DNA of 64,000 bases. Origin: Candidatus Omnitrophota bacterium. Lineage in GTDB: Bacteria > Omnitrophota > Gorgyraeia > Gygaellales > Profunditerraquicolaceae. The notes beneath the pieces are model-generated. The model made no database searches and was not told the DNA's origin. It saw only the letters and a program-made list of their open reading frames with translations. Location of the stretch: NCBI GenBank assembly GCA_022710715.1, contig JAKLGJ010000004.1, positions 320,166-384,165 on the forward strand, read 5' to 3'. Position numbers and translations under genes: made by a program. Shown here piece by piece: positions 25,569-43,247 of this stretch. The number at the start of each line of letters is the position of its first letter. Position 1 is the stretch's first letter.

Positions 25569-28500
25569 ATGTTTCGTAAAATCAACGCGCTGCTGATCAT
25601 TTTCTGTTTTATCTGCGAGCAAAGCGGATTTGCGCAGGTGTCGCCGCAGTCGCCGGTGCCTGCTTATTTAAGCTCGATCGCCTTGCCCCGGGACAGATTC
25701 CGCCCGCTGCATCTGCGCGGCGTAACGTTCGGCGGTGCGGATCGCGGGATGCAATTGCTTCTGGATAAAGGAGACCTGCCTTCGCCTGAAGTCGACCGGA
25801 TCAAAGAAGAGACCCGGATGTTGCTGCGCTATTTCAAGATCGGTCTGGCATTGCCCGATAGCATGTTCTGGGTGAACCTGCGTCCGGACGCGCAGGATCA
25901 GGTGATCGATCCGTATCTGGAAAAGACCGACCTGGGAAAAGTATTGCTGGAAGCCGATCTGCAACTGAAAAAAGACCTGGCGCGTTTTACCCATCCGGAT
26001 ACCCCGGAAGGCCGCAGGTACTGGGACAGATTATATCAGAAGGCCGAACAGATCTACGGGCCGCAGAATCTGACCATTCCTACCTTGACCCGCCCGTGGA
26101 TCGTGCCCGGAGAGATCGTGCTGGGCGAATCGGCTCACGGCGTCTGCATCTATAAGGCTACTTTGAAAGTGATGCTCGAGCAGGACTATCTCAACGATTC
26201 GCCGTTTTTCGCCGCACAGGACGCGCGGCAGAAAGAGCTGAACGCGTATTCTTCCGATCTTATCCGCAAGCTGATCCTGCCGAAATTGATCCGGGAAGTG
26301 AACAGTTCGAAACGGTACGCCGGCCTGCGTCAGGTATATTATTCGCTGATCCTGGCCCGGTGGTTCAAGCAGAAAGCGGCCGCCGGCGCGCCGGCGCTCC
26401 GTCCGGAATGGCAGCGGCTTATCGATTCTCGCGACCTGTCCGGTCTGACTTCCCCGGTTCCCTGGTCCAGAAAATCCTATTTCGACTCTTACCAGCAGTC
26501 CTTCCGCCAGGGAGAGTATAACAAACAGGAACAGTTCGGATTCGCCGGCGGCATGGCCAGCCGGCAGTATTTCTCCGGCGGCGTGCAGATGAACGCCGCG
26601 CTGGTTACGAACGCGGTGTCGACGCTGACTATTCCCGAAGGCTTGCCGGAATTCTTCGGTCGCATTGACGAGTTCATCCGTCTTGATCTGAACGCGGATG
26701 ACAGCATCACTACCGTGCCGCAGGAAAAAGAAGATGTGACCGGCCCGGACGGCGGATTGCCGTCTGCGGATCTTCTCAATCAAGCGCTTGATCAGGCTGA
26801 TGTGACCATATATTCCGGTCCGGCGTTGAGCCAAATGCCTGCCGGCCGGTTGGAATCACTCTGGCAGGGATATAAATCATTCATTCTGGCGCACACCCTG
26901 GCCTTGCGCATGCCGGTGCTCAAAGATTTCCGGCCGTTCCCGGATGTGGAGCGGTTCAATGAGCGTTTCGCCTACGCGCTCAAGGATTGGTTTGCCAGAG
27001 AGACCTCTTTAAGCGGCGTGCCGGTTTTCATCCTCTATGATCCGGTCAAAAAAGTGGCATACAGCCTGCCCGTCAATACCATGGGAACCTCCGCAAAAGA
27101 AATATTCCTTTATGACTTTCCGGATTTGCAGCAGGTAATGGACAACCTTCCGGCGGATGTCCGCCAGCGGTTGCAATTGCGTATCGGCTGGGGCACTAAC
27201 GGCGGGTTAAGAGGGTTTTTTATCCTGGAAAAAGACGATCAGGGTCGGCAACGCCTGGTGGAATTCAAAGGATATACCGTGAATGAAATCAAGAGCGCGG
27301 AGATCTATCGTTCCGGGGATCCTCTGTATTGTTTGAACGAGCAGGCCGGGATGAAAGAGGCCGCTGCTTTGAACGAGCTGGGAGCGGTCGACGCGGCTTT
27401 CACCCGCATCGATACCTATACGGTGCTCATGACCGGAGAAGAAATACAGGTTCCGCTGGGCCAGCTGCGCCGCGAAGGCCAGGTTACGGATTTTACTTCC
27501 CCGGTTACCAGGATGGGGCATATCGTTATCGATTCCCAGGCGCAACTGACCGCAGAGAAGCGAGCCGAACTGTTCGCCGCCGGAAAGAATATGGGCGGGC
27601 AACTGCGTTATCTGCATCAAAGGGCGCGTTTTAACGCCGGCTATAATCCGAACAATAAAATCTATGAATCTTACTGGCATGTGAATAATGTCGATTCCAG
27701 GGGCAATCTTATCGATGTCGTGCTGCGGTCATTCGAAGAGATGGCCGGCGGCAGGTATGACGATAAAAATCCGGAGCATATACAGTTGTTGTTCCAGTTC
27801 ATCCGCGGAGACCTGCGGCGATTCCTCATCGGCACGCGGTCAGGGGGTGACTTCCATGATTACGGATTGCTTAGCAGGATACAGAATAAGGAACATGTGC
27901 GGGCGTTCCTGGAAGGTTTTATAGAGGGATACCTGCCCGAAGGATCCCGGATAGAATTGGAAGAAAAAGACCTGGCGTTATTCCCGCAAAGCACTCTGGT
28001 CAGCCGCATACTTAAACCGGTTGCTCCCCAAAGGGCGCATGACCGCGAAATGAGGGAAGCACAGAGGGAGTATGATCTTGATTTCCGCCTGGCAATGGCT
28101 TTCTTTCTGGCGTTGCCGGCGTCAGCACAGCCGGATCAGCAGGGTAACACCGGCCCGGACGGCGGCAGGAGGCTGGAAAGTCTGAAAGATATGTTCCTGG
28201 ATGTCGCATCGACGGCGTTTCCCGATCTTGAGCCGGCGGCAGTCACCGGCGGAGTGGCTGCTGATCTGCGGCATATCACTGCCGAGCATTCGATTTCAAT
28301 CCCGGGATTTTCTTTCGCGACCAGCGCGATGAACGGATCGCGTCACGCAGCTTTTGAGCATGTCCGCTCTACCGGTTTCAGCGATCCCGAAATCGAAAAA
28401 GCCTGGGACAGCGCGACCACCGATCCTGCCGCGCATGATCCGGCGGCGTTCAGATATATCGTGCATGCGGTGCAATCTCCTAATTCACGGATGATGCGGG

Positions 28501-31500
28501 ATATGCTGACCCTGGAATTAGGGGTGACCGAAGATCCGAGCCGCAGCATTGATCTGACTCGTTTCCCGGATCGAATCGCGGAGAAAACGGTTATTTCAAC
28601 TTCATTCATCGATCAGGATCATCGAAAAACCTGGGCTGATTGCGGATTTATACTCAAGGTTCCGGGTCGCAATATCATTTCCACTTCACCGCAAGACGCC
28701 GGGTCGCTGTTTTGGGAAGGGATAAGCTGGGTGAAGCAGGCTTTGCGCTCGAGGATTTTGATGTCGCCTGAAGATCTTATTTCAGCAAGTGATGCATTCA
28801 CATATAACGAGGTAGTCCTTACCGGCACGCATCCGGATTTTCCGGATTCGCGGGTGGAAATAGTTGGCGTTTTCTTGAAACGGTTGGAAAACGGCGTGCT
28901 CGCGGTTCATGCCAATAATCAGGGAAGCGATCTCTGGAACTTCACCAGCGAGCGTTCGATTGCCAGTCGGCTGATGTACCAGGCCAGAGAGCATGGATGG
29001 CCGATTATCTATATCGATGAACCGATAGAGAAATATGAGGATAATGAGCCCCAATTCTGGGAATCAGTTACCGGAAATGGGACGTTTCACATTGCAGTTC
29101 ATTCGGGAGGCAAGAGGTATCTGGTCACGCGCGAAAAAGACGGAAAAGCCCGTGCATGGGTGTTTGAGCAGGGCGGAGATATTTCCAGGCGAATGAGCGC
29201 GCAGGATTTCGATCTGTGGCATTCCCTGGTATTGCCCTATGTGCAGGCGCATGGTCAGGAAATTCCGTCGGATCCGTTTTTTTCTACAAGAACAGCGGGA
29301 ACGACAGTGAACGAATTCTATGCCGCGGTCATCGGCGATGATGCGGTGAAATGTAAAAAGGAGCTTCTTGACGGCGGTAAGAAGTCGTTTACTACCATAA
29401 ATAACCTTGATCCGGTGGCCGAACAGATCAAGACTATGCCGGCCGGCGGAGTGGTTTATCTGGATGTGGATAATATTATCATCAGACATGACAGCAAGTT
29501 ATATCCCACCGATAAATTCCGCACTGTCCGTTACAACATGCTTAAGCGGGCCAATCCTGCGTTATCGATCGAAGAGGCGGCGAAAACAGTCATTCCGGAA
29601 GTCGCTTATCTGGAAATGATCGCTTTCCGGGCAGGGTTGATCAATGACGTCGAGCGGATCAGCCGGATTGTCGCTCTGGCCAAAGAGCGGAAGTTGCGGG
29701 TGGTAGTGGTAAGCAATCGCTCGCAGGATCTGGCTTCGGGAACCCGGGATATGATCGCGCAACTGGGCGTTTCCGGCATCGATGAATTTCACTTCGTGGG
29801 CAGGGGTAATGACACCAAAGCCGCGAAGATCAAGGAACTTATGGAAGCGGATAAAGTCAGCCATGCGGTTTTCGTGGACGACCTCAAAGGCAACGGCCAG
29901 GCGGTATTCGATCAGATATCGCAGCTGCCCGGGGTAGAGTCGATCAGCGTGTTCCATCTCCAGCAGCAGCGTGAAGAACGTTCTTATCAAGATTATCTGC
30001 GGTCCATAACCGTTATGCTTGCGCTAAAAGATCTGGTTGATCCCGGAGAATTCGAGCTGCTGATGGTCAGCGCCTTGCTGAAGATCAGCGAGGATCCGGC
30101 ATTGCGGGGATTGAACGAGTTGCTCGATCTGATCAGGAAAAACGGCCTGAACGCGCCGCATTTCCTGGGCCAGGGGCTGGTGGAAGAATATTTCAAAGAG
30201 TTGGGCGTGGATCTTGAGTCAGACGCTCTCGATATGGAAAAGATCCGTAAACAGGCGGAGCGGGAGGTCAAAGAAGAGGACGTGGAGGATTTCGCGCGGC
30301 TGCTGGGATTCGATGATGAAGTGATCGTGCAGGGTTTCAGCGATACGGAGCTGGCTCACTGGCACGACAAGGTGCGTCAACTGCGCCGCGCTGCTGCGGC
30401 TGCCGCAGCGAAAGCGGGTAACGCGGTATCCCTTCCCACGGACCTGACTGCGGCGGAAGTAGAGTTCTTCCTGGAGGATGCGGCGCAGCCGCCGGGGTCC
30501 GCCAGAGAGCGTACTCCCCGGAGCGTCCTGGCGCAGCGTTTCAGTAACCTGCTGGCATTCACCCTGTTGATGGCCGCCACGATCTTCTCGGGAGGATTGC
30601 TGCTGCAGCATGATGATCATCAGGATGACTTTATTACGCCGGATGACAGTCTCCCGGCCCTGACCATCAATAAGACCGCGGCTTTTAACAATCTTACCCA
30701 TTCTCCCATGGACTCGCGGTATTATGAGAATCTCAAAAACTACGGCACACCGCCCAAAGTCACCACCGAAGGCCGCAAGATATTTATCGGCGGCGTGGAA
30801 TACAAAGTACGGGCTGTCGCTTTTTCGAACGTACCGGAAGGACAGACGTTCGATGATCTCGTGCTGGATGCGGATCATTTGTCGGATCACGATCTGCAAT
30901 TGATGCAGGCGGCCGGGGTCAACACCATCAGTACCTATTATGCGCCTACCTTCGACTTCCTCGATGAGTGCATGAAATACAATATCCGGGTGATCGTGGG
31001 GATCCCGTATTACGATACGCGTATCCATCCGGGGCCGGATATCAAAACAGGCAGTTATATCGATTACATGGCGTTATACATGAACCATCCCGCGGTGCTC
31101 TGGGTCAAGCTGGGCAATGAATACAATTATCATCCTGAATGGTTCGAGGGCGACGTGGATAACTGGTATCGCGCGATGGATACCGCCGCGCTGACGCTCA
31201 AAGCCATCGATACCAACCACCCTGTTTCCACTGCCCAGGGATATGTCCCTGATATCGGCACTCTCGACAAGTTGAAAAATATCGATGTGATCGGGATCAA
31301 TGGCTATACCTTCGACGATTATTCCGGGATGATCGCCGATTTCAAGGCGAAATCGCCCAAGCCGTTCATATTTACCGAAGCCGGCACCGATTCCTATAAT
31401 ATGATCACCAACTCTCATGATGAAGCGTCTCAAGCCGTAGCCTTGAAACATATCTCGCGCAGCATCGATAATGATCCGGATTGCGCGGGCTGGACGGTAT

Positions 31501-33011
31501 TCGAATGGATCAACGAGCCGGTCAAAGGCTTCGGCGGATGGGGGAACGGGCCGATCCTGGGTCCGCTGGTGCGAAAATTCGGAGGCTCGGGGGTCTATCC
31601 CGACGATATGAGCAACGAGCGCTATTTCGGTTTGCTCACCGAAGACGGCGTTCCCAAGATGTCTTATTACGCGATAATGGAAGAATGGTCCGCAAGAGAA
31701 GTTCTTCCTATAGCTGCCGGCGAACCGGAGGGCGGCGGTCCGGACGGCGGCGCTTTTGCCCTTTCGACCATTGCTCACGCTTTGAAGAGCGATTTCTACT
31801 CGCTGTACGAAACCGCCGCAGGCGACGTGCCGGTGTATATCATGCGCGATCACGGCCTGGCGCTGGCCGGCTGGGAGCTGGCCCGTCTCAAAGGTCTGAT
31901 CTACGGCAAGAAGGAAAAACGCGCCGGAGAGAAGACCGTGCTGGTGCATTTCGATGAGCATCACGACATGTCCGACGGCCAGGCGTACGACCTTGAGCGG
32001 CCGGATCTGGCAATAATCAATCTTTACTATAACGTCAATCAGTTCATCGCGCCGGCAGTGGAGAGCGGGTTGGTCGATGAGATCTACTGGGTCGTTCCCG
32101 ATGATCAGGCGATCGATCCCGAAGACTCCATCCAGACCTATTATTCCGCCCGGTTGATCTTATCCGACGGCACCACGACGGCGTATCTGGCCCGGCAGCA
32201 ACCGACGCAGAGTTCCTATCCTGACCTGGAGCGAATCGAAAATATGCGGGAGGTCCGGGTGCAGAAGATTCATTCCCGCGCGCTGCCGGATTTGAAAGGT
32301 GCCGGTCCGGCTATCGTGGATATCGACGCGGATTACTTCGCTTTTGAACGCCGGGGCGGCGCGGAAAAAGATCCGGGCGTGATTCAGGCGCAGATCAAAG
32401 AAACGCTCGATGCGATAAAGGAAAAAGTGACGCCGGGAGTGATGACTCTGGCTATGTCTTCCGGCTATACTCCGGAAAATCATACGCAGTTGATCATGGA
32501 GAAGCTCGTTACCGGAATAACCGGTTCCGCAGATCCGCAGATCGAGCGGGCTGTGACATTGTTGAATCCCATGCTTGCGGCCTGGAAAATGCTGCACGTT
32601 CCTAACCGGCCGGATAAAGCCGCAGAAGCGCCGGCAGAGCCTGCGAGACCCGTGGATCAGGGGCAGGCCAGAGAGGGCGGCATAGATTTCCGCAGTTTGC
32701 CTTTGGCCGGCGGTCCGGCGTCGGCGGCAACGGATGTCGATCTTTTAGCGGCGCAATTGCGACAATTGGCCGCAGCTTCCAGCATCACCGATCTGGCGCA
32801 GGAATGGTCGCGCATCGAAGAACAGATCCGCACGCAGGAAGTTCCCTGGCAGCGGATCAAAGAATTCTGGGCGGTGTGCAGCCAGCGCGGGGACGGACAC
32901 CATTATAAATCCCGAGTGGTCAGTTGCATTGTCGGAATGATGCGCCTGGAGGAAGAATCGGCTGTTGCTACTCCAACGCAGCTGAAAGATCTGCTCGTTT
33001 GTATGGGATAA
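25569..33011 (+). CDS. giant secreted multidomain protein (paralog 1): shared N-module, HAD-like, clan GH-A TIM-barrel-like and UPF0489/arginase-fold-like regions, shared C-module
   Basis: Signal peptide 'MFRKINALLIIFCFICEQSGFAQV', with GGAG 5-9 nt upstream of the ATG. HAD-like motifs 'VVYLDVDNII' / 'VVVVSNRS' / 'FVDDLKG'. GH-A signatures 'KLGNEYNY' and 'IFTEAG'. 'LVHFDEHHDM' / 'IVDIDADYF' follow. The first ~380 aa and last ~100 aa are homologous to ORF 58067..61519. Confidence 0.7.
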   Translation: MFRKINALLIIFCFICEQSGFAQVSPQSPVPAYLSSIALPRDRFRPLHLRGVTFGGADRGMQLLLDKGDLPSPEVDRIKEETRMLLRYFKIGLALPDSMFWVNLRPDAQDQVIDPYLEKTDLGKVLLEADLQLKKDLARFTHPDTPEGRRYWDRLYQKAEQIYGPQNLTIPTLTRPWIVPGEIVLGESAHGVCIYKATLKVMLEQDYLNDSPFFAAQDARQKELNAYSSDLIRKLILPKLIREVNSSKRYAGLRQVYYSLILARWFKQKAAAGAPALRPEWQRLIDSRDLSGLTSPVPWSRKSYFDSYQQSFRQGEYNKQEQFGFAGGMASRQYFSGGVQMNAALVTNAVSTLTIPEGLPEFFGRIDEFIRLDLNADDSITTVPQEKEDVTGPDGGLPSADLLNQALDQADVTIYSGPALSQMPAGRLESLWQGYKSFILAHTLALRMPVLKDFRPFPDVERFNERFAYALKDWFARETSLSGVPVFILYDPVKKVAYSLPVNTMGTSAKEIFLYDFPDLQQVMDNLPADVRQRLQLRIGWGTNGGLRGFFILEKDDQGRQRLVEFKGYTVNEIKSAEIYRSGDPLYCLNEQAGMKEAAALNELGAVDAAFTRIDTYTVLMTGEEIQVPLGQLRREGQVTDFTSPVTRMGHIVIDSQAQLTAEKRAELFAAGKNMGGQLRYLHQRARFNAGYNPNNKIYESYWHVNNVDSRGNLIDVVLRSFEEMAGGRYDDKNPEHIQLLFQFIRGDLRRFLIGTRSGGDFHDYGLLSRIQNKEHVRAFLEGFIEGYLPEGSRIELEEKDLALFPQSTLVSRILKPVAPQRAHDREMREAQREYDLDFRLAMAFFLALPASAQPDQQGNTGPDGGRRLESLKDMFLDVASTAFPDLEPAAVTGGVAADLRHITAEHSISIPGFSFATSAMNGSRHAAFEHVRSTGFSDPEIEKAWDSATTDPAAHDPAAFRYIVHAVQSPNSRMMRDMLTLELGVTEDPSRSIDLTRFPDRIAEKTVISTSFIDQDHRKTWADCGFILKVPGRNIISTSPQDAGSLFWEGISWVKQALRSRILMSPEDLISASDAFTYNEVVLTGTHPDFPDSRVEIVGVFLKRLENGVLAVHANNQGSDLWNFTSERSIASRLMYQAREHGWPIIYIDEPIEKYEDNEPQFWESVTGNGTFHIAVHSGGKRYLVTREKDGKARAWVFEQGGDISRRMSAQDFDLWHSLVLPYVQAHGQEIPSDPFFSTRTAGTTVNEFYAAVIGDDAVKCKKELLDGGKKSFTTINNLDPVAEQIKTMPAGGVVYLDVDNIIIRHDSKLYPTDKFRTVRYNMLKRANPALSIEEAAKTVIPEVAYLEMIAFRAGLINDVERISRIVALAKERKLRVVVVSNRSQDLASGTRDMIAQLGVSGIDEFHFVGRGNDTKAAKIKELMEADKVSHAVFVDDLKGNGQAVFDQISQLPGVESISVFHLQQQREERSYQDYLRSITVMLALKDLVDPGEFELLMVSALLKISEDPALRGLNELLDLIRKNGLNAPHFLGQGLVEEYFKELGVDLESDALDMEKIRKQAEREVKEEDVEDFARLLGFDDEVIVQGFSDTELAHWHDKVRQLRRAAAAAAAKAGNAVSLPTDLTAAEVEFFLEDAAQPPGSARERTPRSVLAQRFSNLLAFTLLMAATIFSGGLLLQHDDHQDDFITPDDSLPALTINKTAAFNNLTHSPMDSRYYENLKNYGTPPKVTTEGRKIFIGGVEYKVRAVAFSNVPEGQTFDDLVLDADHLSDHDLQLMQAAGVNTISTYYAPTFDFLDECMKYNIRVIVGIPYYDTRIHPGPDIKTGSYIDYMALYMNHPAVLWVKLGNEYNYHPEWFEGDVDNWYRAMDTAALTLKAIDTNHPVSTAQGYVPDIGTLDKLKNIDVIGINGYTFDDYSGMIADFKAKSPKPFIFTEAGTDSYNMITNSHDEASQAVALKHISRSIDNDPDCAGWTVFEWINEPVKGFGGWGNGPILGPLVRKFGGSGVYPDDMSNERYFGLLTEDGVPKMSYYAIMEEWSAREVLPIAAGEPEGGGPDGGAFALSTIAHALKSDFYSLYETAAGDVPVYIMRDHGLALAGWELARLKGLIYGKKEKRAGEKTVLVHFDEHHDMSDGQAYDLERPDLAIINLYYNVNQFIAPAVESGLVDEIYWVVPDDQAIDPEDSIQTYYSARLILSDGTTTAYLARQQPTQSSYPDLERIENMREVRVQKIHSRALPDLKGAGPAIVDIDADYFAFERRGGAEKDPGVIQAQIKETLDAIKEKVTPGVMTLAMSSGYTPENHTQLIMEKLVTGITGSADPQIERAVTLLNPMLAAWKMLHVPNRPDKAAEAPAEPARPVDQGQAREGGIDFRSLPLAGGPASAATDVDLLAAQLRQLAAASSITDLAQEWSRIEEQIRTQEVPWQRIKEFWAVCSQRGDGHHYKSRVVSCIVGMMRLEEESAVATPTQLKDLLVCMG

Positions 33012-33029
33012 TTTCAGATTAAGGGGCGC

Positions 33030-33105
33030 CCGGAACTGGTTACCAACCAAACGACCAGCCGATACCCAATCGTATTTCCGGCGCCCCTTATTTTTTTTTC
33101 ATTCC
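33030..33105 (+). terminator. large-loop rho-independent terminator
   Basis: AAGGGGCGCC ... GGCGCCCCTT inverted repeat followed by a T10 run, directly after the giant ORF stop. Confidence 0.6.
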
Positions 33106-33115
33106 TGCCGATAAG

Positions 33116-33125
33116 CATGGTATAA
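33116..33125 (+). promoter_or_regulatory. putative extended -10 promoter element (TGgTATAAT)
   Basis: 'atggtataat' lies about 50 nt upstream of the 33172 start. Confidence 0.35.
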
Positions 33126-33171
33126 TACAAAAAATTGTGGATTTTCGGTCAACTACCCCGAGTTACGCTTT

Positions 33172-36100
33172 ATGTCCGGAATAAAAATAGATCGGAACAC
33201 ATTACTCATCGCTGCCCTCGGTCCAGCGCTCTGGTTGCTGGACGGGTTGTTGATGTCGGTACTGTTCAAAGAGAATCTTCTCCGGCAATTATTTCTTCCC
33301 AAAGGGCCGGATTTCATCGTCAACCTGCTTTTGTTCTTCCTGCCCGGAGCTCTGGCTGTGGTCTTCACCCGCGACAGCGGCGAAACCCCGCCCTCCCCGC
33401 CCAAACCCGCTTTTGACCTGACAAAAGGCAACGCCATACTTATCGACGGATCCGGCAAGATCATCGAAGCCAACGATAATATTTTGGCTCTGCTCGGCCA
33501 TACCCAGGAGCAGCTCGCCGGTTCGGAGATCACTCAAATCTGCGGCAAAACCGATCCGCAGAAAGTATTCGCGTTTATCGCGGAAGTCCTGGAGCATAAA
33601 GACGGCATACTCGATAATATCGCGGTGTTCGGCAAGAGCAAGGTCATGCGCGCGGATATCCGCGGCAGGCTGATCAAGAATTTCCGGCGGGATATACCCC
33701 AAGCCATTTTGTTGGAACTGGCGCCGCGCCTTCCGGCTGCCGCCGCGCAAGTTCCGGCCGCGCAAGCTCCGGCTGCCCAGGCAGGGTCTGTAACTCCGGC
33801 AGCGCAACCGCAGCCTGCAGTTTCGCCTCAACCGCAACATCCGTCGCTCAAAGACATCATTGCCGCCATTGTCCCTGCGCAGCCGCAGCAGGCGTCGTCA
33901 TCGCAGTCGCAATCGCCGCAGTCGCCGTCTCCGCAGCCGCCGCAACAGCAGGAATCTCCGGCGAAATTTGATCAGGAGCGCAGGAAGATCGAAGACGCGG
34001 TCCGGACACAGGAGCAGAAAAAAGCGCAGGAACAGATCCAGGCTCTGGAGCAGAAGCACGCCCGGGAAATGGTCGAGAGAATGACCCAGGAACGCAAACG
34101 CATGGAAGTGGCTTTCCAGGAACAGGCCCGCAAGCTGCTGGAAGAAGAGCGCAAGCGTCTGGAAGATTCCATCCGCAGGCAGGAACAGAACGCTGCCCAG
34201 GAAAAGATCCGGGCGCTGGAGAGCCGGCAGGCGCAGGAGTTAAGCGTCAGGCTGGCCAATGAGCGCAAACGTCTGGAACTGGCTTTGCGCGAAGAAGAGC
34301 AGCTCACCACCACGCGCATCGAAGATTCCCTGAAGAAAAAATTCGAGCAGCAGCTGCGCGCGCAACTGGATGAAGATCGTAAACATTGGGAAGCCACCAC
34401 GCGGCAACTGGAGAAGACTCTGGAACAGCAGATGGAACGCCAGGTCCGGTTGCGCGTTGAAGATGAACGCAAGCGCCTGGAACAATCCGTGCGCCACGAA
34501 GAGCAGAAAAAAGCCCAGGAACAGGTGCAGGCGGTGACCAAACATTTTTCCGAAGAACTGAACCAGAAGCTTACCGAAGAGCGCAAGCGGCTGGAGCCGA
34601 TCATTCGGGGAGAAGAGCAGAAGAAAGCCGAAGAGAGCCTGCGCACCCTGGAGAACCGGCACGTGCAGTCGCTGGGAGTCAAGATCGCCGAGGAACGCCG
34701 GCGCACCGAAGAAGCCGCGCGCAAGGAAGAGCTCAAGAAGCTGCAGGAAACCGAAGCTTTTCTCGCCAGGCAGCATGAGACGGAGACGCGGCAGCGCCTG
34801 GAAGAAGAACGCCTCCGGGTGGAAGCAGAGATCCGCGGCCAGGAACGCGCGCGGGCGGAAGAGCAGCTCGCATTGCTTAAAACCCGGCATGCCGAAGAAT
34901 TGGCTTTGCGCATCGAAGAAGAAAAGAGCCGGGTTGAAGCCCAGGTGCGCCAGCAGGAGCGCCAGGCCGCGCAGGAGCAAATCTTCGTTCTGAAAAATCA
35001 GCAGGCCCAGGAACTCTGGGTTAAGATCGCCGAGGAGCGCAAGCGTCTGGAAGATACGGTCCGGACCGAAGAACGCAAGCGCGCGCAAGACGTGGTCCGC
35101 CTGGAAGAGCAAAGCAAGGCCCAGGAGCAGATCCGGCTGCTGGAGAATAAATTCGCCGTTGAGCTGGGGCAGAAGATCGCGGAAGCCAGGAAGCAGATCG
35201 AAGAAGCTGTCCGGCAGGAAGAGATCAAGAAAGCCCAGGAGAATCTGCGTCAGATCAACACCGAGCATGCCGAAGAAACCTGGCGTAAATTGAACGAGGA
35301 ACGCGCGCGGGCTGAAGAAGCCACGCGCCGGCAGGAAGAGGAGAAGCATCTGCGTTTGCTGGAGGAGCTGAAAGCTACTTACGCCCGGGATCTTGCCGCT
35401 AAACTGGAGCAGGAACGCAAGCGCATCGAAGAAACCGTCCGCCAGGAAACCGAACACGCCCTGCAGGAGCGCGTGCGTAACCTTGAACAAACCCAGGCCC
35501 GGGAATTCACCGCGCAGATGGCTGAAGAACGCCGGCGCCTGGAACAGCTCATCCGCCAGGAAGAACAAAAGAAGCGGGAAACGCTGGAGGCAATGCTCAA
35601 GAAACAATACGTCGACGAATTGCAGCAGCAACTGGCAGAGGAGCGGCGTAAGGCGCAAGAGTCTCTCCGTCAGCAGGAGGGGCAGACATTTCGCCAGCAG
35701 CTGCAGGAAGTCGACCAGAAATACGCGCAGGATCTTAACGCGAAACTATCCCTGGAACGCCAGAAATTCGCAGATCAGCACGCGTTGCTGGAAGTGCAGA
35801 TCCGCCAGCAGGAGCAGCAGAAACTTCAGCAGCAGATCATCGACCTGGAGAATAAACACGCCGCGTATATGGCCGGCAGGATCGCCGAGGAGCGCAAACA
35901 GGTGGAAGCAGCGGTGCGTCAGGAAGAGCGCAAGAAAACCGAAGAAACGATACAGGCGTTAAAAGCGCTCTACGCCCAGGAGGCGAAAGCCGCCCAGGCG
36001 CAACAGACGCCGCAGCCCGCGCCTGTCGCCGCGCCGGCGATTATTTCCGCCGAGCAGCGCAAGCAGATAGAAGAAACTGTGCGCCAGGAAGAGCGCAAGA

Positions 36101-36957
36101 AAGCCGAAGAAGCAATCCAGGCGCTCAAAGCGCTCTATGCCCAGCAGTCTAAGGAGCTCGCCAAGCTCCCGCAGGCCAAGCCCCTGCCGGCAGCGGCCCC
36201 GGCGGTTCCGCCTGCCGCCCCGCAACCCGTCGGCGCAGCCAGGCCCGCGGCGCAATCCGCGAATGTGCGTATCCCGGGCATGGGCAAGATCGTTACCGGC
36301 CTGTCCCAGGAAATTCTCAACCCCTTATCCGCGGTGTTGAATAACGTCAAGCTGGTCAAGATCAAATTGATGCAGGAAGCCGGTCCCAAGAATACCGAGC
36401 TGAAGAATTCCATCGATCTGATCGAGGATAACGCGCTGCTGTGCAAGAATATCCTTTATTCGCTTTCCGATCCCACGCGCGCCGTGCAGGCCTCATTCAA
36501 GAGCCTCTCGCTTAACGACACTATCGCCAAAGTGGAAACCCTGTTCGGTTATGAGCTGAAGCTGCAGAACATTTCCCTGCAGAAACAACTGCAGGCGAAC
36601 CTGCCGGATGTCAGCGGCGACCCGCTGCTTCTGATGCAGGTTGTCTTCAATATCATCGCCAACGCCAAATGGGCGATCAAGAACAATCCCTATGTCAGCG
36701 CAGGCACCATCCACATCGTCACCCAGGCCACCCAGAACGACGAAGTGGAGGTCATCATTACCGATAACGGCATCGGGATATCCCCGGAGCATATGTCGCA
36801 TCTCTACGAACCGTTCTTTACCACCAAGACCGACGGGCTGGGATTAGGCCTGGCAGTCGCCCGGAACATCATGCAGGAGCACAAAGGCACGATCGAAATA
36901 GTCAGCAAAGACGGCAAAGGCGCCACCGTCACCCTGCGCTTCCCCACAGCGAAATAA
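33172..36957 (+). CDS. PAS - extended coiled-coil repeat - histidine-kinase-like protein (H-box His replaced by Gln)
   Basis: N-terminal 2 TM plus a PAS-like segment ('ILIDGSGKIIEANDNILALLGHTQEQLAGSEI'). About 900 aa of ~38-residue repeats follow ('ERKRLE..VRQEEQKKAQEQI.ALE..HA.EL..KIAE'). C-terminal HisKA-like 'LSQEILNPLSAV' and an intact HATPase_c ('NIIANAKWAI', 'DNGIGI', 'GLGLGLAVAR'). Confidence 0.75.
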   Translation: MSGIKIDRNTLLIAALGPALWLLDGLLMSVLFKENLLRQLFLPKGPDFIVNLLLFFLPGALAVVFTRDSGETPPSPPKPAFDLTKGNAILIDGSGKIIEANDNILALLGHTQEQLAGSEITQICGKTDPQKVFAFIAEVLEHKDGILDNIAVFGKSKVMRADIRGRLIKNFRRDIPQAILLELAPRLPAAAAQVPAAQAPAAQAGSVTPAAQPQPAVSPQPQHPSLKDIIAAIVPAQPQQASSSQSQSPQSPSPQPPQQQESPAKFDQERRKIEDAVRTQEQKKAQEQIQALEQKHAREMVERMTQERKRMEVAFQEQARKLLEEERKRLEDSIRRQEQNAAQEKIRALESRQAQELSVRLANERKRLELALREEEQLTTTRIEDSLKKKFEQQLRAQLDEDRKHWEATTRQLEKTLEQQMERQVRLRVEDERKRLEQSVRHEEQKKAQEQVQAVTKHFSEELNQKLTEERKRLEPIIRGEEQKKAEESLRTLENRHVQSLGVKIAEERRRTEEAARKEELKKLQETEAFLARQHETETRQRLEEERLRVEAEIRGQERARAEEQLALLKTRHAEELALRIEEEKSRVEAQVRQQERQAAQEQIFVLKNQQAQELWVKIAEERKRLEDTVRTEERKRAQDVVRLEEQSKAQEQIRLLENKFAVELGQKIAEARKQIEEAVRQEEIKKAQENLRQINTEHAEETWRKLNEERARAEEATRRQEEEKHLRLLEELKATYARDLAAKLEQERKRIEETVRQETEHALQERVRNLEQTQAREFTAQMAEERRRLEQLIRQEEQKKRETLEAMLKKQYVDELQQQLAEERRKAQESLRQQEGQTFRQQLQEVDQKYAQDLNAKLSLERQKFADQHALLEVQIRQQEQQKLQQQIIDLENKHAAYMAGRIAEERKQVEAAVRQEERKKTEETIQALKALYAQEAKAAQAQQTPQPAPVAAPAIISAEQRKQIEETVRQEERKKAEEAIQALKALYAQQSKELAKLPQAKPLPAAAPAVPPAAPQPVGAARPAAQSANVRIPGMGKIVTGLSQEILNPLSAVLNNVKLVKIKLMQEAGPKNTELKNSIDLIEDNALLCKNILYSLSDPTRAVQASFKSLSLNDTIAKVETLFGYELKLQNISLQKQLQANLPDVSGDPLLLMQVVFNIIANAKWAIKNNPYVSAGTIHIVTQATQNDEVEVIITDNGIGISPEHMSHLYEPFFTTKTDGLGLGLAVARNIMQEHKGTIEIVSKDGKGATVTLRFPTAK
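33970..36145. repeat. degenerate ~114-bp tandem coding repeats (about 20 copies) encoding the coiled-coil units
   Basis: Periodic recurrence of gag/gaa-cgc-aag-cgy-ctg-gaa ... cag-gaa-gag-cag-aag-aaa-gcc-cag-gag-cag. Confidence 0.7.
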
Positions 36958-36989
36958 GCCCCTGCCGGAGAAAAGAATTAGCTTGTCAA

Positions 36990-37177
36990 AAAAGGCCATA
37001 AATACTACAATATGATACACTGCGCCCGTGGCTTAGCGAGGCTTGTGCAGGCGGGTATTTGCAGAATAGCGGTAGAAGTAGAAAGCCGAGCGTATCCTGT
37101 ACGATGCAAGGAGATCCCGAAGGGATCGACGCAGCGGTTATCGTACAGGACAACTGGATAGATAGAGTGCAATTTTT
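36990..37177 (+). pseudogene. disrupted tRNA-Arg 5' fragment with ~150-nt structured insert
   Basis: GCGCCCGTGGCT (acceptor/D-stem of the downstream tRNA-Arg) at about 37013, then about 150 nt including CCTGTACGAT...ATCGTACAGG and GATCCCgaagGGATC hairpins, then CAACTGGATAGATAGAGTGC (D-loop-like), AATTTTT, and the intact tRNA. Confidence 0.4.
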
Positions 37178-37251
37178 GCGCCCGTGGCTCAACTGGATAG
37201 AGCACTAGCCTACGGAGCTGGTTGTTGGTGGTTCGAATCCACCCGGGCGCA
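37178..37251 (+). tRNA. tRNA-Arg (anticodon ACG)
   Basis: Hand-folded cloverleaf: acceptor GCGCCCG/CGGGCGC, D-arm GCTC-AACTGGATA-GAGC, anticodon stem CTAGC/GCTGG with loop CT-ACG-GA, T-arm GGTGG-TTCGAAT-CCACC, discriminator A. Confidence 0.85.
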
Positions 37252-37297
37252 TTAAATTTCCCCGAAGACCCGGTCATGCGATCGGGTTTTCAAGCAT

Positions 37298-37768
37298 ATG
37301 GCGATGAAAAAACTCGACGAATTGTTCATGGCGCAGGCGATCAAAGAAGCAGCCAAGGCTTTTGAGAAGGATGAGGTGCCGGTGGGTTGCGTGATCGTGC
37401 ACAAAGGCAAAGTGATCGCCAAAGGCCACAATCAGGTGGAGATGCTCAAAGATCCCACCGCGCACGCCGAGATGCTGGCTTTGACTTCCGCCGCCAACGC
37501 GCTGGGCTCAAAGTGGTTGAACGGCGCTTCGATCTATGTTACAATTGAACCTTGTAGCATGTGCGCCGGGGCGTTAGTGCTCGCCCGGATCAAAGAGATC
37601 GTTTTCGGCGCTCCGGACCCCAAAACCGGCGCCTGCGGTTCGGTATTCGACATCGCCAACTGTAAAAAGCTGAATCACCGCATCCAGGTGCGCTCCGGCG
37701 TGCTGGAAGCGGACTGCGCGCTGCTGTTGAAAGAGTTCTTCCGCAAGAAACGCGCGAAAGAGAATTAA
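37298..37768 (+). CDS. tadA: tRNA-specific adenosine(34) deaminase
   Basis: 'HAEMLAL' and 'PCSMCAGAL' are the CDA zinc-ligand motifs (H-A-E, PCxxC). 156 aa. Confidence 0.85.
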   Translation: MAMKKLDELFMAQAIKEAAKAFEKDEVPVGCVIVHKGKVIAKGHNQVEMLKDPTAHAEMLALTSAANALGSKWLNGASIYVTIEPCSMCAGALVLARIKEIVFGAPDPKTGACGSVFDIANCKKLNHRIQVRSGVLEADCALLLKEFFRKKRAKEN

Positions 37769-37795: not shown

Positions 37796-37884
37796 GGAGA
37801 GGTGGCAGAGTGGTCGAATGCAACTCACTGCTAATGAGTTATCTGGGGAAACCTGGATCCTGGGTTCAAATCCCAGCCTCTCCG
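37796..37884 (+). tRNA. tRNA-Ser (anticodon GCT)
   Basis: Acceptor GGAGAGG/CCTCTCC, anticodon stem AACTCA/TGAGTT with loop CT-GCT-AA, long variable arm, T-arm CTGGG-TTCAAAT-CCCAG, discriminator G. Confidence 0.85.
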
Positions 37885-37950: not shown

Positions 37951-38064
37951 AGCCACGCAGCAAGGCTTAAAATCCCGCTCATTTCCTTCAAGAAGCTGGT
38001 AAAAGTCAGCTTCCTTCGTTAAGCAGTCTGCAATGCTCGTCGAGATTTCGAAATGGGAGGATAA

Positions 38065-38391
38065 ATGACAGCAAACAAATTTACTGCCAACGCGTCGGCC
38101 CTTTCGGATTTACTGAATTATCAGACTGATTCGATTGTTAGTCAAGAGATCGTGAAGAAAAGCTCCGGCACGGTAACGTTATTCGCTTTTGACAAAGGAC
38201 AGGGTTTAAGCGAGCATACCGCTCCTTTTGACGCTCTGGTTTATATCGTTGACGGGAAAGTTGAAATTACGATCTCCGGCAAACCCTTGATCGTTAAAAA
38301 AGGCGAAATCATCATTATGCCTGCGAATAAGCCTCATGCCTTGAAAGCGGTGCAGAAATTCAAGATGCTTTTGGTTATGATGAAAAGGTGA
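38065..38391 (+). CDS. cupin domain protein
   Basis: 108 aa. '[27 protein letters not shown]...[14 protein letters not shown]' is a cupin two-motif beta-barrel pattern. Confidence 0.65.
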
Positions 38392-38395
38392 AGAG

Positions 38396-38749
38396 ATGAT
38401 AAAAACAAAAAGAATTTACAACGGTCCCGCAAGAGGCGATGGTTTGAGAATCCTTGTGGACAGGCTCTGGCCGCGAGGCATAAGCAAAGAGGAGGCGAAA
38501 ATCGACCTCTGGCTCAAAGACATTGCCCCCAGCGACGGCCTAAGAAAATGGTTTGCGCATGACCCGGCAAAATGGTCTGTATTTAAAGAAAAGTACTTTT
38601 CTGAGCTCGGCAATAAAAAAGCTCTCATTGGCGAAATTATGAAGAAAGCGAAAGGCGACGTGACACTGTTGTATGCCGCCAAAGACGAACAGCATAATAA
38701 CGCGCAGGCGTTAAAAGAATATATTGAAAACAAGGAGGTGGTATCATGA
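38396..38749 (+). CDS. DUF488 family protein
   Basis: 'IKTKRIY..P...[18 protein letters not shown]...W.K..APS..LR.WF' matches DUF488 (YeaO-like). Confidence 0.65.
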
Positions 38750-39336
38750 AGAGCAGAAAGATAAATAAATTTTTCTTGTTTCTGCTTAGCGCAGCGGCTG
38801 TCTTGTCTATTGGAAGGGGTGAACTGTTTGCGCACTGCGACACTTTGGATGGCCCTGTGATTCAGGATGCACGAACAGCTTTAGAGAAGGGTGATGTTAC
38901 GCCGGCGCTCAAATGGGTCAAAAAAGACGCTGAGCCGCAGATCCGCGCTGTCTTCGATAAGACGATCGCCGAGCGCAAGTCAAATAAAGATGCCGCTGAT
39001 ATGAAATTCTTTGAGACGCTGGTGCGTATTCATCGCGCAGGAGAAGGCGCGTCTTTCACCGGCCTTAAGCCAGGCGGTTCTGTCGAGACTATTGTCGCCG
39101 GAGCGGATAAAGCATTGGAAACCGGCTCCCTTGATGCTTTGACTCAAGAAATGGCAACGCATCTTACAAGTGGCGTTAAGAAACGCTTCGAGCGTGCGTT
39201 TGCATTGAGGAAGCATAAAGACGAAAGCGTTGAGGCCGGACGTGAATATGTGGAGGCTTATGTCGAATACGTGCATTACGTGGAAGGATTGCACGATATG
39301 ATAGGGGGCAAGGGTAGCCATAATCACGAAGAATAG
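38746..39336 (+). CDS. hypothetical secreted protein (DUF6448-like)
   Basis: Signal peptide, then '[15 protein letters not shown]' and a helical remainder. Confidence 0.4.
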
Positions 39337-39376
39337 CGCCTGCTTATTCGTAAAAAATAAAATTTCGGGAGATTCT

Positions 39377-39757
39377 ATGAGCGGAGGGAAAATACTCAAG
39401 AGAAGAATTCAGGAGTATTTTTTCAAAGAAGAACGTATTATATTCCATGTTTTTCGCGGTATTTTTCGAAGCTTGATCCTTATCCTCAGTTTTTTGATGA
39501 TAGGGATATTCCTTTTCATGAAAACAGAAAAACTTGGTTTCCATGATTCTTTATACGAGACCGCGATGATCATGACGGGCATGGGGCCAGCTATCGAATT
39601 GCAAACAAATAGCGGAAAAATCTTTGCGTCTATTTTTGCTATGGTATCGGTAGGGGTGGTTATTTCTTCAATCACTTTTGTCTTCGGCCCTATTTATAGA
39701 CGATGGCATAAGAAAATGCATATTGAAATCCAGCAAAAGACAGGCGGTAAAGAATAA
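39377..39757 (+). CDS. two-TM ion-channel-like protein (pore-loop 'TGMGP')
   Basis: TM1 - pore helix 'YETAMIMTGMGP' - TM2 architecture. No K-selective TVGYG filter. Confidence 0.4.
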   Translation: MSGGKILKRRIQEYFFKEERIIFHVFRGIFRSLILILSFLMIGIFLFMKTEKLGFHDSLYETAMIMTGMGPAIELQTNSGKIFASIFAMVSVGVVISSITFVFGPIYRRWHKKMHIEIQQKTGGKE

Positions 39758-39766
39758 TCGAGGTTT

Positions 39767-40441
39767 ATGCAAATGCGCATACTATTAGTAGAGGATGAAA
39801 TAAGAATGGCCAGTTTTATTGTGCGCGGCCTGAGAGAAGAGGATTACGTGGTTGACGTGGCCAATGACGGAGAAAAGGCTTTATTCCAGGCCGAAATTAA
39901 TCCGTATGATCTTATAATCCTTGATATTATGCTGCCGGTTAAAGACGGCATTACTGTCTGTCGGGAACTCCGGAGCAAGAAGATAAACGTTCCTATCTTG
40001 ATGCTTACATCCAAAGACAGGGTGCGAGATAAGGTTTTAGGCTTGAATTCAGGCGCCGATGATTATCTGGCTAAACCATTTGCTTTTGAGGAGCTGATAG
40101 CCAGAATTAGCGCCTTATTACGGCGGGATAAAACAGATAAAACCGGTATTATTAAAGTCGCAGACTTAGAGCTGGATCAGCTCAGGCATGCAGTTACGCG
40201 GGCCGGGAATGAAATCCAGCTAACCAGCAAAGAGTTTGCCCTTTTGGAATACCTTATGCTTAATGCCACTCACGTCGTTACCAGGACAATGATTTCAGAA
40301 CACGTATGGCATGAAGATTTCGACAGTTTGACGAACGTCATTGATGTTTATATGAATTTCTTGCGCAATAAGATCGATAAAGGGCACAAAAAACGGCTTA
40401 TCCATACCATCCACGGCAAAGGGTATGTTTTAAAGGAATAA
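39767..40441 (+). CDS. OmpR-family response regulator (CusR/CopR-like)
   Basis: Receiver ('LLVEDE', 'LIILDIMLP') plus winged-helix trans_reg_C. Close paralog of 52483..53151. Confidence 0.85.
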
Positions 40442-40443
40442 CT

Positions 40444-41472
40444 ATGCTCGCCCAAACAATCAAATCAAAGGTTTGCATACTATACGCCTCTCTATTAGGC
40501 GTCGTGTTGTCTCTCTATGTCGGTCTGCTGCTTTTTATGCCCGCGGATTTATTGCAGAGGAATAAGCTGTTTTATATATTGATCCCTATCCCCCTGACGT
40601 TATTATTCGGTTATTTTATCGGGCATGTGATTATAACAAGAATTCTAAAGCCGATTAAAAAGATGACCGACACAGTAAAAAATATTACTCATGAAGATTT
40701 GAGTCTAAGAGTTCAGGCAGAAAACGTGGATGAGGAGTTGAGACGTTTGATCGAAGCTTTTAACGATATGGTTTCGCGGCTGGGGGAGTCATTCGAGTAT
40801 ATTACAGACTCAAGTTCGTATATCGCCCATGAGCTTAAAACCCCGATAGCCATCATCAGGGGGGAGTCGGAATTCGCATTAAAAAAAGAACGGGAGAAGG
40901 AAGAATACCAGAGAGTCATCAGCGTGAGTTTGGAAGAAACCAAGAGAATGCTTAAAATTATCGAGGATTTATTGTTTTTGACCAAAATGAATTACCAACC
41001 CGATGTTTTGAAATTCGAGCAGATTGATCTGACGCAGTTTATCCGTATAATTTACGAACAGGCAAAGATGCTGGCATCCAAAAAGAACATAACGGTCAAC
41101 ATAAATATCCCCGAAGAACCCGGTATGGTTAATGCGGATGATCTGCACCTGCGGCGCTTATTCTTTAACTTAATAGATAATGCAATAAAATTTACCCCCG
41201 CAAGCGGCAGTATAACGATAAATTTACGATATGAAGATCAAAAGGGAGCAGTTTCTATTATTGATTCGGGAATCGGGATTGAGGAAGAGAACATGCCGAA
41301 GCTTTTTGATAAGTTTTTCCGCATCGACGGAACGATTAAAGACACTTCTCCCAGCAGTGGATTAGGTTTAAGCATCGCCCAATCGATAGCCCAGTTGCAT
41401 AAGGGCAATATTTCGGTAACGAGCCGCGTTGGGCAAGGAACAAACTTTACCGTATCCCTCCCCGTTTTATAA
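40444..41472 (+). CDS. sensor histidine kinase (CusS-like)
   Basis: Two TM helices, a HAMP-like region, H-box 'AHELKTPIAII', N-box 'NLIDNAIKFT', 'DSGIGI' and 'GLGLSIA'. Confidence 0.85.
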   Translation: MLAQTIKSKVCILYASLLGVVLSLYVGLLLFMPADLLQRNKLFYILIPIPLTLLFGYFIGHVIITRILKPIKKMTDTVKNITHEDLSLRVQAENVDEELRRLIEAFNDMVSRLGESFEYITDSSSYIAHELKTPIAIIRGESEFALKKEREKEEYQRVISVSLEETKRMLKIIEDLLFLTKMNYQPDVLKFEQIDLTQFIRIIYEQAKMLASKKNITVNINIPEEPGMVNADDLHLRRLFFNLIDNAIKFTPASGSITINLRYEDQKGAVSIIDSGIGIEEENMPKLFDKFFRIDGTIKDTSPSSGLGLSIAQSIAQLHKGNISVTSRVGQGTNFTVSLPVL

Positions 41473-41662
41473 TCAACACATCTCCGCTCAGATTCTTTCC
41501 AGCTATCCAATCATTAAAAATTTTAATTCCTTTTTAACACTTCTTTAATCGCGAGTATGTTATATTGTCTGCCGATGAGGGAAAAAAATTACGGGTGGCT
41601 GCGGAGATCTGTTAAGCAGTGGAAGTTCACTCTGCAGCCGCCCGCAGAATTAAGGAGCGACA

Positions 41663-43234: not shown

Positions 43235-43247
43235 GAGGGAATGAACA

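Follow-up and report, generated by a model that had tools for sequence, protein, structure and literature searches.

NifL, a PAS and histidine kinase-like protein, has a functional GHKL nucleotide-binding domain and signals to NifA through protein-protein contact, not through phosphotransfer. Among pseudo-histidine kinases few cases have been studied (such as DivL and PsmA), and in these the ATP site has decayed together with the histidine. DivL of Caulobacter crescentus (PDB 4q20) carries Tyr550 in place of the histidine and is without kinase or phosphatase activity; it binds a phosphorylated response regulator (DivK~P), modulates another kinase, and binds ATP analogues weakly, its Kd being 57 uM (PMC4211667). 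PsmA of the Streptomyces polarisome, which acts with the coiled-coil polarity proteins DivIVA, Scy and FilP, has an H-box residue that varies among orthologues (E, D, Q, V, Y) and is without autokinase activity; its ATP-binding motifs have not been conserved, and prediction indicates an ATP lid that would not allow binding (PMC12963549). The 64,000-nucleotide stretch of a Candidatus Omnitrophota genome analysed here (assembly GCA_022710715.1, contig JAKLGJ010000004.1, positions 320,166 to 384,165; hereafter the window) encodes, at 33172..36957 of the forward strand, a 1261-residue protein that ends in a histidine kinase module lacking its phospho-acceptor histidine. The gene product is probably a conserved nucleotide-binding pseudo-histidine kinase that is carried on a long membrane-anchored rod and acts via protein-protein contacts. 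It raises the question of what role the ATP pocket of a histidine kinase has when the canonical phosphorylation target is gone and the pocket is nevertheless kept among proteins of 40-57% identity.

The open reading frame (ORF) at 33172..36957 (+) starts with ATG and is a complete coding sequence of 1261 codons plus stop for this rod-tethered pseudo-histidine kinase. From the N-terminus the protein consists of two hydrophobic segments, a PAS domain, a Pro/Gln/Ala linker, a rod of 38-residue repeats, Pro-rich linkers, and a module at aa 1034-1261 made up of a dimerisation and histidine phosphotransfer (DHp) part and a catalytic and ATP-binding (CA) part. Gene calls of the same length with an identical product are found on at least 10 independent contigs from four sources: JGI (a 1.62-Mb contig), ENA, NCBI (GCA_035390565.1) and Logan. 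These contigs bear on the concern, raised in the preliminary description of this gene, that the repeat array had collapsed in assembly or that the critical CAG codon was a base-call error; both array and codon are upheld by them, and collapse or miscalling is ruled out as well by the diverged DNA of the repeats and by orthologues that are likewise without the histidine. An origin in faulty sequencing or assembly is extremely unlikely, and so is a pseudogene in decay. Repetitive genes are indeed prone to collapse, and at one related locus (L015-L017) the gene is frameshifted between its two transmembrane segments (TM1 and TM2); against this stand the intact ORF, the independent sources, repeat DNA that is only 60-83% identical from copy to copy, and the fact that eight clusters are His-less alike with conserved ATP boxes.

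The DHp-like helical hairpin (36280..36468 (+); helices at aa 1037-1068 and 1073-1099) is recognized by AlphaFold2 (AF2) modelling, by Foldseek and by the phmmer match to ZraS, and its H-box reads GLSQEILNPLSAV. The codon CAG at 36307..36309 (+) encodes Gln1046, which occupies the alignment column of the phospho-acceptor His, as the preliminary description had proposed and as two alignments now bear out. A phmmer search against the PDB aligns GLSQEILNPLS of the window protein with GVAHEIRNPLS of ZraS (9jfj), so that the Gln falls on the phospho-His; and in a MAFFT alignment of 43 sequences the 39 ordinary relatives with residues in the column all read His-Glu there. Two family members reach the column: the window protein with Gln-Glu and P0121, its closest homologue in the alignment, with Gln-Gln. 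No His occurs from aa 1000 to aa 1180, and hence none in the whole DHp; those of the last 260 residues (1181, 1207, 1210 and 1237) all lie in the CA domain. With the H column aligned on Gln1046 and the DHp devoid of any His, an alternative acceptor in that domain, the other point on which the preliminary description could have failed, is ruled out. The protein could still be an ordinary histidine kinase if its acceptor lay at position 28 of the repeats, where 6 of the 17 full units have His and 5 have Tyr; but the same position is elsewhere occupied by Gln or Phe and lies on the hydrophobic seam of the rod, and an acceptor displaced either to another DHp residue or to the repeats is very unlikely. 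As far as can be read from the sequence, then, the kinase module is without its phospho-acceptor His, and neither a sequencing error nor a misalignment accounts for this.

The CA (HATPase_c) domain (36496..36954 (+)) is by contrast as complete as the preliminary description had held, with Pfam E = 3.6e-24, an AF2 predicted local distance difference test (pLDDT) score mostly of 88-98, and all four boxes intact: N FNIIANAKWAI, G1 DNGIGI, F YEPFFTTK and G2 GLGLGLA. HATPase_c is the only Pfam model above threshold on the window protein, and HisKA does not match it. The AF2 model of aa 1020-1261 displays a DHp hairpin and an alpha/beta CA domain (pLDDT 85, predicted template modelling score 0.73), for which Foldseek returns ZraS as the best match (E = 1.7e-20) and also FixL chimeras, HK853 and WalK (E = 1e-20 to 1e-15). 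In sequence, aa 1033-1260 match the NCBIfam models of AtoS (1.2e-43) and ZraS (2.7e-34) and the PDB entry of ZraS (2e-27). The curated NCBIfam cut-offs, that of T2SS_HK included, are reached by neither the window protein nor four other members; NF008468 (AtoS) scores 149 vs 646 bits and NF007688 (ZraS) 119 vs 479, the C-terminal 230 residues alone being matched. The window protein has Glu at H+1 and Asn at H+4 (Q-E-I-L-N), as in the E-x-x-N phosphatase motif.

A word-indexed search found two close homologues, P0001 (Candidatus Omnitrophota; Q at the His position) and P0002 (L), and a profile of the three C-terminal modules added P0121 and P0243, also with Q. An exhaustive HMMER profile scan of 1.84 billion representatives was then tabulated for 152 sequences (148 of the 150 matches listed, together with P0002 and P0123). 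All proteins with at least two repeat copies are without the His: the window protein, P0001, P0248, P0249 and P0121 have Q, P0002 has L, P0250 S and P0284 E. On the question of Q versus H, which the preliminary description had left to the orthologues, His is thus found in none of the seven other repeat-rod clusters (Q, Q, Q, Q, L, S, E). Among the remaining tabulated proteins 143 have His (typically GVAHEINNPLTGVLNN) and at most two weak repeat matches, and two others have Ile. The N, G1, F and G2 boxes are intact in 8/8 members at 40-57% identity, in the forms FN..(A/S/L)NA(K/R/E)(W/L)(A/S)I, D(N/D/T)G(I/V/A)GI, F(E/D)PFF(T/S)T and GLGLGL, which argues that the ATP site is under selection. 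The residue at H+1 is Glu in the window protein only, Gln in six members and Gly in one, and Asn or Thr at H+4 is kept in 6/8. What the family has in common is accordingly the nucleotide pocket, and not the autokinase dyad or the phosphatase motif.

Members whose source is named are all Candidatus Omnitrophota, and a scan of GTDB species-representative genomes yielded ordinary kinases in other phyla only and no family member. Those held at NCBI are annotated as "ATP-binding protein" and others at JGI as "PAS domain S-box-containing protein"; a literature search found no published description of the family. Since related Omnitrophota genomes share the His-less rod design, a new family is indicated rather than an error, and on the evidence of these comparisons it is a previously undescribed one within the known class of pseudo-histidine kinases.

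The conserved ATP site, unlike the sites of DivL and PsmA, keeps alive two explanations in which the head is catalytic: phosphorylation of another kinase in trans, taken up below with the gene neighborhoods, and phosphorylation of a target other than His. In the latter a repurposed GHKL head would phosphorylate Ser, Thr or Tyr (cf. RsbW/SpoIIAB and mitochondrial PDK/BCKDK) or drive a conformational cycle with ATP. The strict retention of the N, G1, F and G2 boxes across eight clusters that have lost the His and mostly the Glu is what such an enzyme would show, and the binding-only DivL and PsmA have decayed ATP sites. However, no conserved Ser, Thr or Tyr has taken the place of the His (Q/L/S/E), the DHp+CA fold and sequence are still nearest those of ordinary HisKA kinases, and there is no substrate candidate, so that a repurposed protein kinase or ATPase is unlikely.

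The rod accounts for the largest part of the protein. A hidden Markov model (HMM) built from the repeat units finds 17 full 38-residue and 3 partial (17-21 residue) units over aa 269-993, about 725 residues; the figure of about 20 tandem copies of about 38 residues in the preliminary description therefore stands, and its length of about 900 residues does not. Repeat HMM, Fourier analysis and AF2 support a helical rod at aa 269-940 (33976..35991 (+)) that holds the 3 partial repeats and all but one of the 17 full ones. A short Pro/Ala-rich interruption, seen from composition at aa 941-960 (35992..36051 (+)), separates it from the last unit, aa 961-996 (36052..36159 (+)), the DNA of which is 83% identical to that of the preceding unit. 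The consensus is ERKRLEEAVRQEEQKKAQEQIxALExKHAQELxxKIAE, and the DNA copies recur at multiples of 114 nt with identities of 60-73% (83% for the best pair); Tandem Repeats Finder reports no 114-nt array in the repeat DNA. Hydrophobic residues occupy positions 5, 9, 17, 21, 24, 28, 32 and 36 of the unit, and two further seam positions, 13 (Glu in 16/17 units) and 2 (=40; Arg in 15/17), are conserved charged residues. The seam spacing is 4-4-4-4-3, twice per 38 residues, and divides the unit into two 19-residue halves; the partial units correspond to about half a unit. Arg10, between Glu6 and Glu13, is invariant (17/17).

The preliminary description called these units heptad-rich and the whole a coiled coil of that kind, a claim that does not survive Fourier analysis. 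The positions of L/I/V/M/F/W/Y in the window rod give a single sharp peak at 3.80 residues (19/5) with a power of 7.04; the maxima of shuffled sequences lie at 0.68 +/- 0.22, the power at 3.5 is 0.11, and the spectrum is empty at 3.5, 3.6 and 3.67. The periodicity is 3.77-3.83 in 8/8 family members, and the rods of a sister group described below, at 3.50-3.53 (P0385: 3.50), serve as a positive control for the method. A heptad coiled coil is accordingly rejected. Opposite charges are paired about twofold more often than expected (64 +/- 6), namely 129 times at i+4 (z = 10) and 139 times at i+3 (z = 12), and pairs of like charge at these spacings are depleted to almost none, a pattern typical of helices stabilized by salt bridges. 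The composition is 44% charged with 21% L/I/V/M/F/W/Y in a strongly periodic seam. AF2, run on a single chain and a single sequence, models aa 432-697 as one unbroken 264-residue helix (pLDDT 86.6). Repeats folded as helical hairpins or a spectrin-like bundle are not supported, since the units are without a conserved Gly or Pro position and that single-chain, single-sequence model is one continuous helix.

The 19/5 "nonadecad" is a recognized coiled-coil periodicity, which implies a right-handed supercoil (PMC8016460). The window rod resembles such coiled coils in its hydrophobic periodicity of 3.80 over a long helix and differs from them in the conserved charged residues at two seam positions of each unit. 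With the charged single alpha-helix of ER/K type it shares the strong enrichment of opposite charges at i/i+3 and i/i+4. A pure single alpha-helix has a very high charge and no hydrophobic seam, and by this measure the rod is too poor in charge (44%) and too rich in hydrophobic residues (21%). It may be either a two-stranded right-handed coiled coil or a single helix with a hydrophobic stripe; two strands would be natural if the DHp dimerizes and both chains are membrane-anchored in parallel. As a straight helix rising 1.5 A per residue, the approximately 670 residues of aa 269-940 would span about 100 nm and the rods of orthologues about 37-57 nm, the number of repeats ranging about threefold, from about 6 (P0243, P0250, P0284) to about 20 in the window protein. 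Searched against 5.8 billion proteins, aa 432-697 have no match at E <= 1e-3, family members included, presumably because of the composition correction; the rod has no match by phmmer against the PDB and none in Pfam, and the repeat HMM matches no other ORF of the window. The coding strand of the repeat region has an extreme purine bias (AT skew 0.44), and two reverse-strand ORFs that lie within it, 33972-34913 (-) of 313 aa and 34240-35658 (-) of 472 aa, are most likely not genes; they are regarded as by-products of a coding strand made up of purine-rich GAA, GAG, CAG and AAG codons.

At the N-terminus only two 19-mers have a mean Kyte-Doolittle hydropathy above 1.6, aa 12-30 and 48-66, with a 14-residue loop between. 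Hydropathy thus assigns a membrane hairpin (33202..33366 (+); TM1 aa 11-32, TM2 aa 48-65), in agreement, as does the ORF list, with the 1261-residue frame with two transmembrane helices first read here. TM1 carries the signature GPxLWxxD and the loop the motif (R/K)Q(L/I/V)FxP. The full motif K-I-D...GPxLWxxD...(R/K)Q(L/I/V)FxP is kept in the His-less members with a complete N-terminus, with AP for GP in P0248; P0001 and P0121 are N-terminally truncated and stand outside this comparison. The pattern GPxxWxxD has no match among the His-containing relatives listed. At locus L015 (9846-10124 and 10001-11560; also at L016 and L017), TM1 (MKNHKIDMAFWLIAAIGPALWFLDALAVSILFK) is out of frame with TM2 and the rest. 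The frameshift, -1/+2 near 9940-9955, occurs in three contigs from three related JGI samples, has an intact counterpart in P0249, and is either a pseudogene or a recurrent error.

The PAS domain (~aa 80-184; 33409..33723 (+)) is sub-threshold for Pfam PAS_9/PAS in the window protein, where PAS_9 matches aa 88-144 with E = 1.2e-5 to 4e-4 and 25.9 bits against a gathering threshold of 27. It is clear in the family: the PAS, PAS_9 and PAS_8 models match 6/6 aligned N-termini (best E = 3.7e-10), and the PAS-like domain of the preliminary description is substantiated in this way. PAS is kept in 6/8 members; in the subtype P0249/P0243 the hairpin runs directly into the rod. Pro-rich low-complexity stretches lie at ~aa 176-273, 936-966 and 991-1036. 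The first includes the 84-residue Pro/Gln/Ala/Ser-rich linker at aa 185-268 (33724..33975 (+)), confirmed by composition as a low-complexity segment of the kind first noted in this protein and absent from the three homologues aligned over that region. Between rod and DHp lies a Pro/Ala-rich linker, aa 997-1033 (36160..36270 (+)), marked by low complexity and AF2 disorder; the first 16 residues of the AF2 fragment 1020-1261 are without regular structure (pLDDT < 50). Most homologues likewise have a short non-helical, often Pro/Ala-rich segment between the rod and DHp helix 1. The linker breaks helical continuity into that helix, whereas in canonical kinases the signal enters DHp helix 1 through a continuous helix, so that the head would be mechanically tethered to the sensor and not helically coupled to it. 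The comparison of the rod to a ruler in the preliminary description is weakened by the Pro-rich, presumably flexible linkers that flank it and by the threefold range of repeat number; these same features argue that the rod is a flexible-ended tether of variable length, neither a rigid ruler nor a signal-conducting helix. In nearly all its other details the preliminary observation is borne out.

In the interpretation that we favor, the two-helix hairpin serves as the membrane anchor and places both ends of the protein on the same side, presumably the cytoplasmic one because the head binds ATP. The PAS domain lies beside the membrane, followed by the continuous alpha-helical rod of 38-residue repeats with Pro-rich linkers at both ends and by a DHp+CA module that has descended from HisKA kinases of AtoS/ZraS/NtrB type, its acceptor His replaced and its ATP boxes kept. 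Autophosphorylation at the canonical site would not take place, and the protein would thus not itself feed a phosphorelay. It is probably a homodimer formed through the DHp, with two parallel rods, and nucleotide binding would be retained as a regulatory or conformational ligand. Most likely the whole is a membrane-anchored scaffold or adaptor, the head of which would bind a partner, be it a response regulator or a genuine kinase, in a nucleotide-dependent fashion, by analogy with DivL-DivK~P or NifL-NifA, and the rod would set reach or spacing and not carry a signal.

Several considerations weigh against this scaffold interpretation. The window gene is a solitary transcription unit between a giant ORF and tRNA-Arg/tadA. 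The strictly conserved ATP site, unlike the weak or degenerate sites of DivL and PsmA, hints at a catalytic over a ligand-binding role. The Glu at H+1 and Asn at H+4 may, in this orthologue only, confer residual phosphatase activity toward a response regulator; and what is said of rod oligomerization, of topology in the membrane and of dimerization is inferred. A bolder and rather improbable proposal is that the head uses ATP, is carried by a two-stranded, right-handed 19/5 rod up to ~100 nm in length, and phosphorylates, at a set distance from the membrane, a non-His target or the His of a second kinase. With rods tuned per lineage to between 6 and 20 repeats, the protein would then be a spatial "reach" or ruler device by which division, the nucleoid or a pilus-like machine is organized. 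If true, the rod would be among the longest natural nonadecad coiled coils known to us.

The order of features in the window is 2509-aa ORF, pseudo-kinase gene, tRNA-Arg(ACG), tadA, tRNA-Ser, low-GC island. At L015 (P0243) the gene follows a GMP-synthase-like gene and precedes a tRNA-like sequence and tadA; at L023 (P0249) a response regulator-histidine kinase protein, a response regulator and a 1040-aa multi-PAS protein precede it, and a small ORF and tadA follow; and for P0002, P0248 and L019 (P0284) the order is tadA, 0-3 genes, the gene, dnaX, recR and ABC-F. tadA is thus at most three genes away in 6/6 loci, and dnaX-recR lies directly downstream in three. The conserved neighborhood suggests a vertically inherited chromosomal gene, and the adjacency of tadA and dnaX is read as housekeeping synteny, not as a functional link or a common pathway. 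A functional link to the 2509-aa ORF is not supported, since that ORF is missing from the other six loci and a terminator-like hairpin lies between the two. This putative element, read from the sequence at 33021..33100 (+) just past the stop of the 2509-aa ORF, consists of the inverted repeat AAGGGGCGCC ... GGCGCCCCTT with a long loop and then a T9 run; a loop of more than 8 nt leaves it outside the terminator scan. A -10-like hexamer, TATAAT, at 33122..33127 (+), 45 nt upstream of the start codon, is on sequence grounds a putative promoter of the gene's own. A promoter-like site at 36983-37011 and then tRNA-Arg(ACG) follow at the 3' side, and with these signals before and after it the pseudo-kinase gene looks like its own transcription unit. 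No response regulator adjoins it in the window; the nearest lies 2.8 kb downstream in the low-GC island, with a HAMP kinase of its own.

The sole functional hint for the design of the family comes from a sister group, P0375 and P0385, whose members have the N-terminal hairpin motif, Ile at the His position and a heptad rod. Their G2 box is degenerate, as is the N-box of P0375. The genes (L020 8001-9563; L021 4791-6353; L022 1445-3247) stand directly after an MshEN-T2SSE-PilZ ATPase and T2SSF, and on the longer P0375 contigs they are followed by a 1111-aa PAS-HisKA-HATPase kinase, three response regulators and pseudopilins. This locus, with its bona fide two-component system, places the combination of hairpin, rod and His-less head within a machine resembling a type II secretion system (T2SS) or type IV pilus (T4P) in at least one branch.

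The neighborhoods bear in two ways on the possibility that the protein is a trans-phosphorylating subunit, that is, that a split or heteromeric kinase has its catalytic half in this tethered protein, the CA domain of which would phosphorylate the His of another kinase after DHp heterodimerization. Trans autophosphorylation within histidine kinase dimers is established, e.g. by EnvZ complementation, and all the ATP boxes are kept despite the loss of the His and of the Glu at H+1; moreover P0249 follows the 1040-aa multi-PAS protein, and P0375 precedes the 1111-aa kinase with its three response regulators. However, no kinase adjoins the gene in the window or at four other loci, and in the sister group, where a bona fide kinase stands alongside, the ATP site is the decayed part, the opposite of what the model needs. 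A subunit of this type is hence doubtful. Also unlikely is an essentially structural or cytoskeletal rod that would serve the architecture of very small cells as a filament or spacer fixed to the membrane, its head being a vestigial dimerization plug. The rod does make up more than half of the protein, its repeat number is evolvable, and the housekeeping genes tadA, dnaX and recR are its neighbors at these loci; but in a vestigial head the ATP boxes should decay, and such decay is already visible in the sister group. All eight members of the main family keep them, and PAS is kept in 6/8.

Downstream of the gene, tRNA-Arg(ACG) (37177-37252 (+)), a TadA substrate, lies directly 5' of the tadA-like deaminase gene (37298-37768 (+)), and tRNA-Ser(GCT) (37796-37884 (+)) directly 3' of it. 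The order pseudo-histidine kinase, tRNA-like sequence, tadA is found at L015 also, where the tRNA-like sequence reads as an ORF, 'MAQLDRALAYGAGCWWFESTRAH'. The first 12 nt of tRNA-Arg (GCGCCCGTGGCT), at 37178-37189, are repeated 156 nt upstream at 37022-37033, after the promoter-like site; this copy is possibly a leader or the product of a partial tRNA duplication. A hairpin, CCTGTACGAT...ATCGTACAGG, lies at ~37094-37150 between both 12-nt copies, and a structured RNA in the 36958-37176 spacer is discounted, there being no Rfam match and a fold z-score of only -1.7. Right past tRNA-Ser(GCT) the GC content falls from ~0.55 to 0.41-0.47 over ~38000-48000. This stretch encodes a cupin, DUF488, DUF6448, an OmpR-type response regulator with a HAMP-HisKA kinase, a second receiver protein, DUF5698/DUF2179, PhoU, a GreA/GreB-like factor, a ThsB-like TIR protein and a GNAT. 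It resembles an island acquired by horizontal transfer and inserted beside a tRNA gene. Upstream, the giant 2509-aa ORF (25482-33011 (+)) has a hydrophobic signal-like N-terminus and as its only Pfam trace a sub-threshold UPF0489 match at aa 2144-2286. ORFs at 58022-61519 (+) (1165 aa) and 23994-25379 (+) (461 aa) have no Pfam match at all. A 388-aa ORF at 8132-9298 (+) displays a prokaryotic N-terminal methylation (pilin-like) motif at aa 104-127, its true start being perhaps further downstream; no other sign of a pilus or T2SS was seen in the window.

The rod keeps a clean 19/5 periodicity over hundreds of residues, a geometry known mainly from short segments, and would serve as a natural model for right-handed or salt-bridge-stabilized rods. 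Omnitrophota cells are only a few hundred nm across. The phylum is uncultured and its cell biology almost without experimental characterization, and a conserved chromosomal gene for a membrane-anchored rod of 35-100 nm offers a handle on the internal organization of these very small cells. There is also a lesson for annotation, in that "ATP-binding protein" and "PAS domain S-box-containing protein" both hide the missing His.

Compared with the systems introduced at the outset, the window family resembles DivL in plan; both are membrane-anchored, contain PAS, and have a HisKA-type DHp+CA module with a replaced acceptor His. DivL is nonetheless not an orthologue (its structure 4q20 is a Foldseek fold match at rank 38, with 17% identity); it has no repeat rod, its PAS is joined to the DHp without Pro-rich tethers, and the window family differs from it in keeping all ATP boxes. 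PsmA shares with the family a variable residue at the H-box position (Q, L, S and E in the latter). It differs as a hybrid histidine kinase-like protein with a receiver domain, has coiled coils as separate partners, belongs to another phylum and is not an orthologue. NifL is soluble, without a rod, and always paired with nifA; its model TIGR02938 is a weak match (E = 2.9e-17, 62 vs a cut-off of 242 bits) in which the CA domain alone is similar. FrzS and AglZ of Myxococcus xanthus combine a phosphorylation-dead pseudo-receiver with a long coiled coil and act as a localization or recruitment scaffold for type IV pili (PMC1974792, PMC9811614). They apply the same design logic to the other half of the two-component pair; they are receivers and not transmitters, FrzS is not membrane-anchored, no sequence relationship is apparent, and their link to pili has its counterpart in the T2SS/T4P-like locus of the sister group only, not in the window gene. 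The ancestral stock is represented by the AtoS/ZraS/NtrB-type HisKA kinases, the best sequence and fold matches of aa 1033-1260, whose closest His-containing members read GVAHEINNPLTGVLNN where the window protein reads GLSQEILNPLSAVLNN. From AtoS and ZraS the window protein differs in having no acceptor His and no adjacent sigma-54 activator or other response regulator, and the architecture of hairpin, rod and tether on which its kinase-like head is mounted is unique to the window family.

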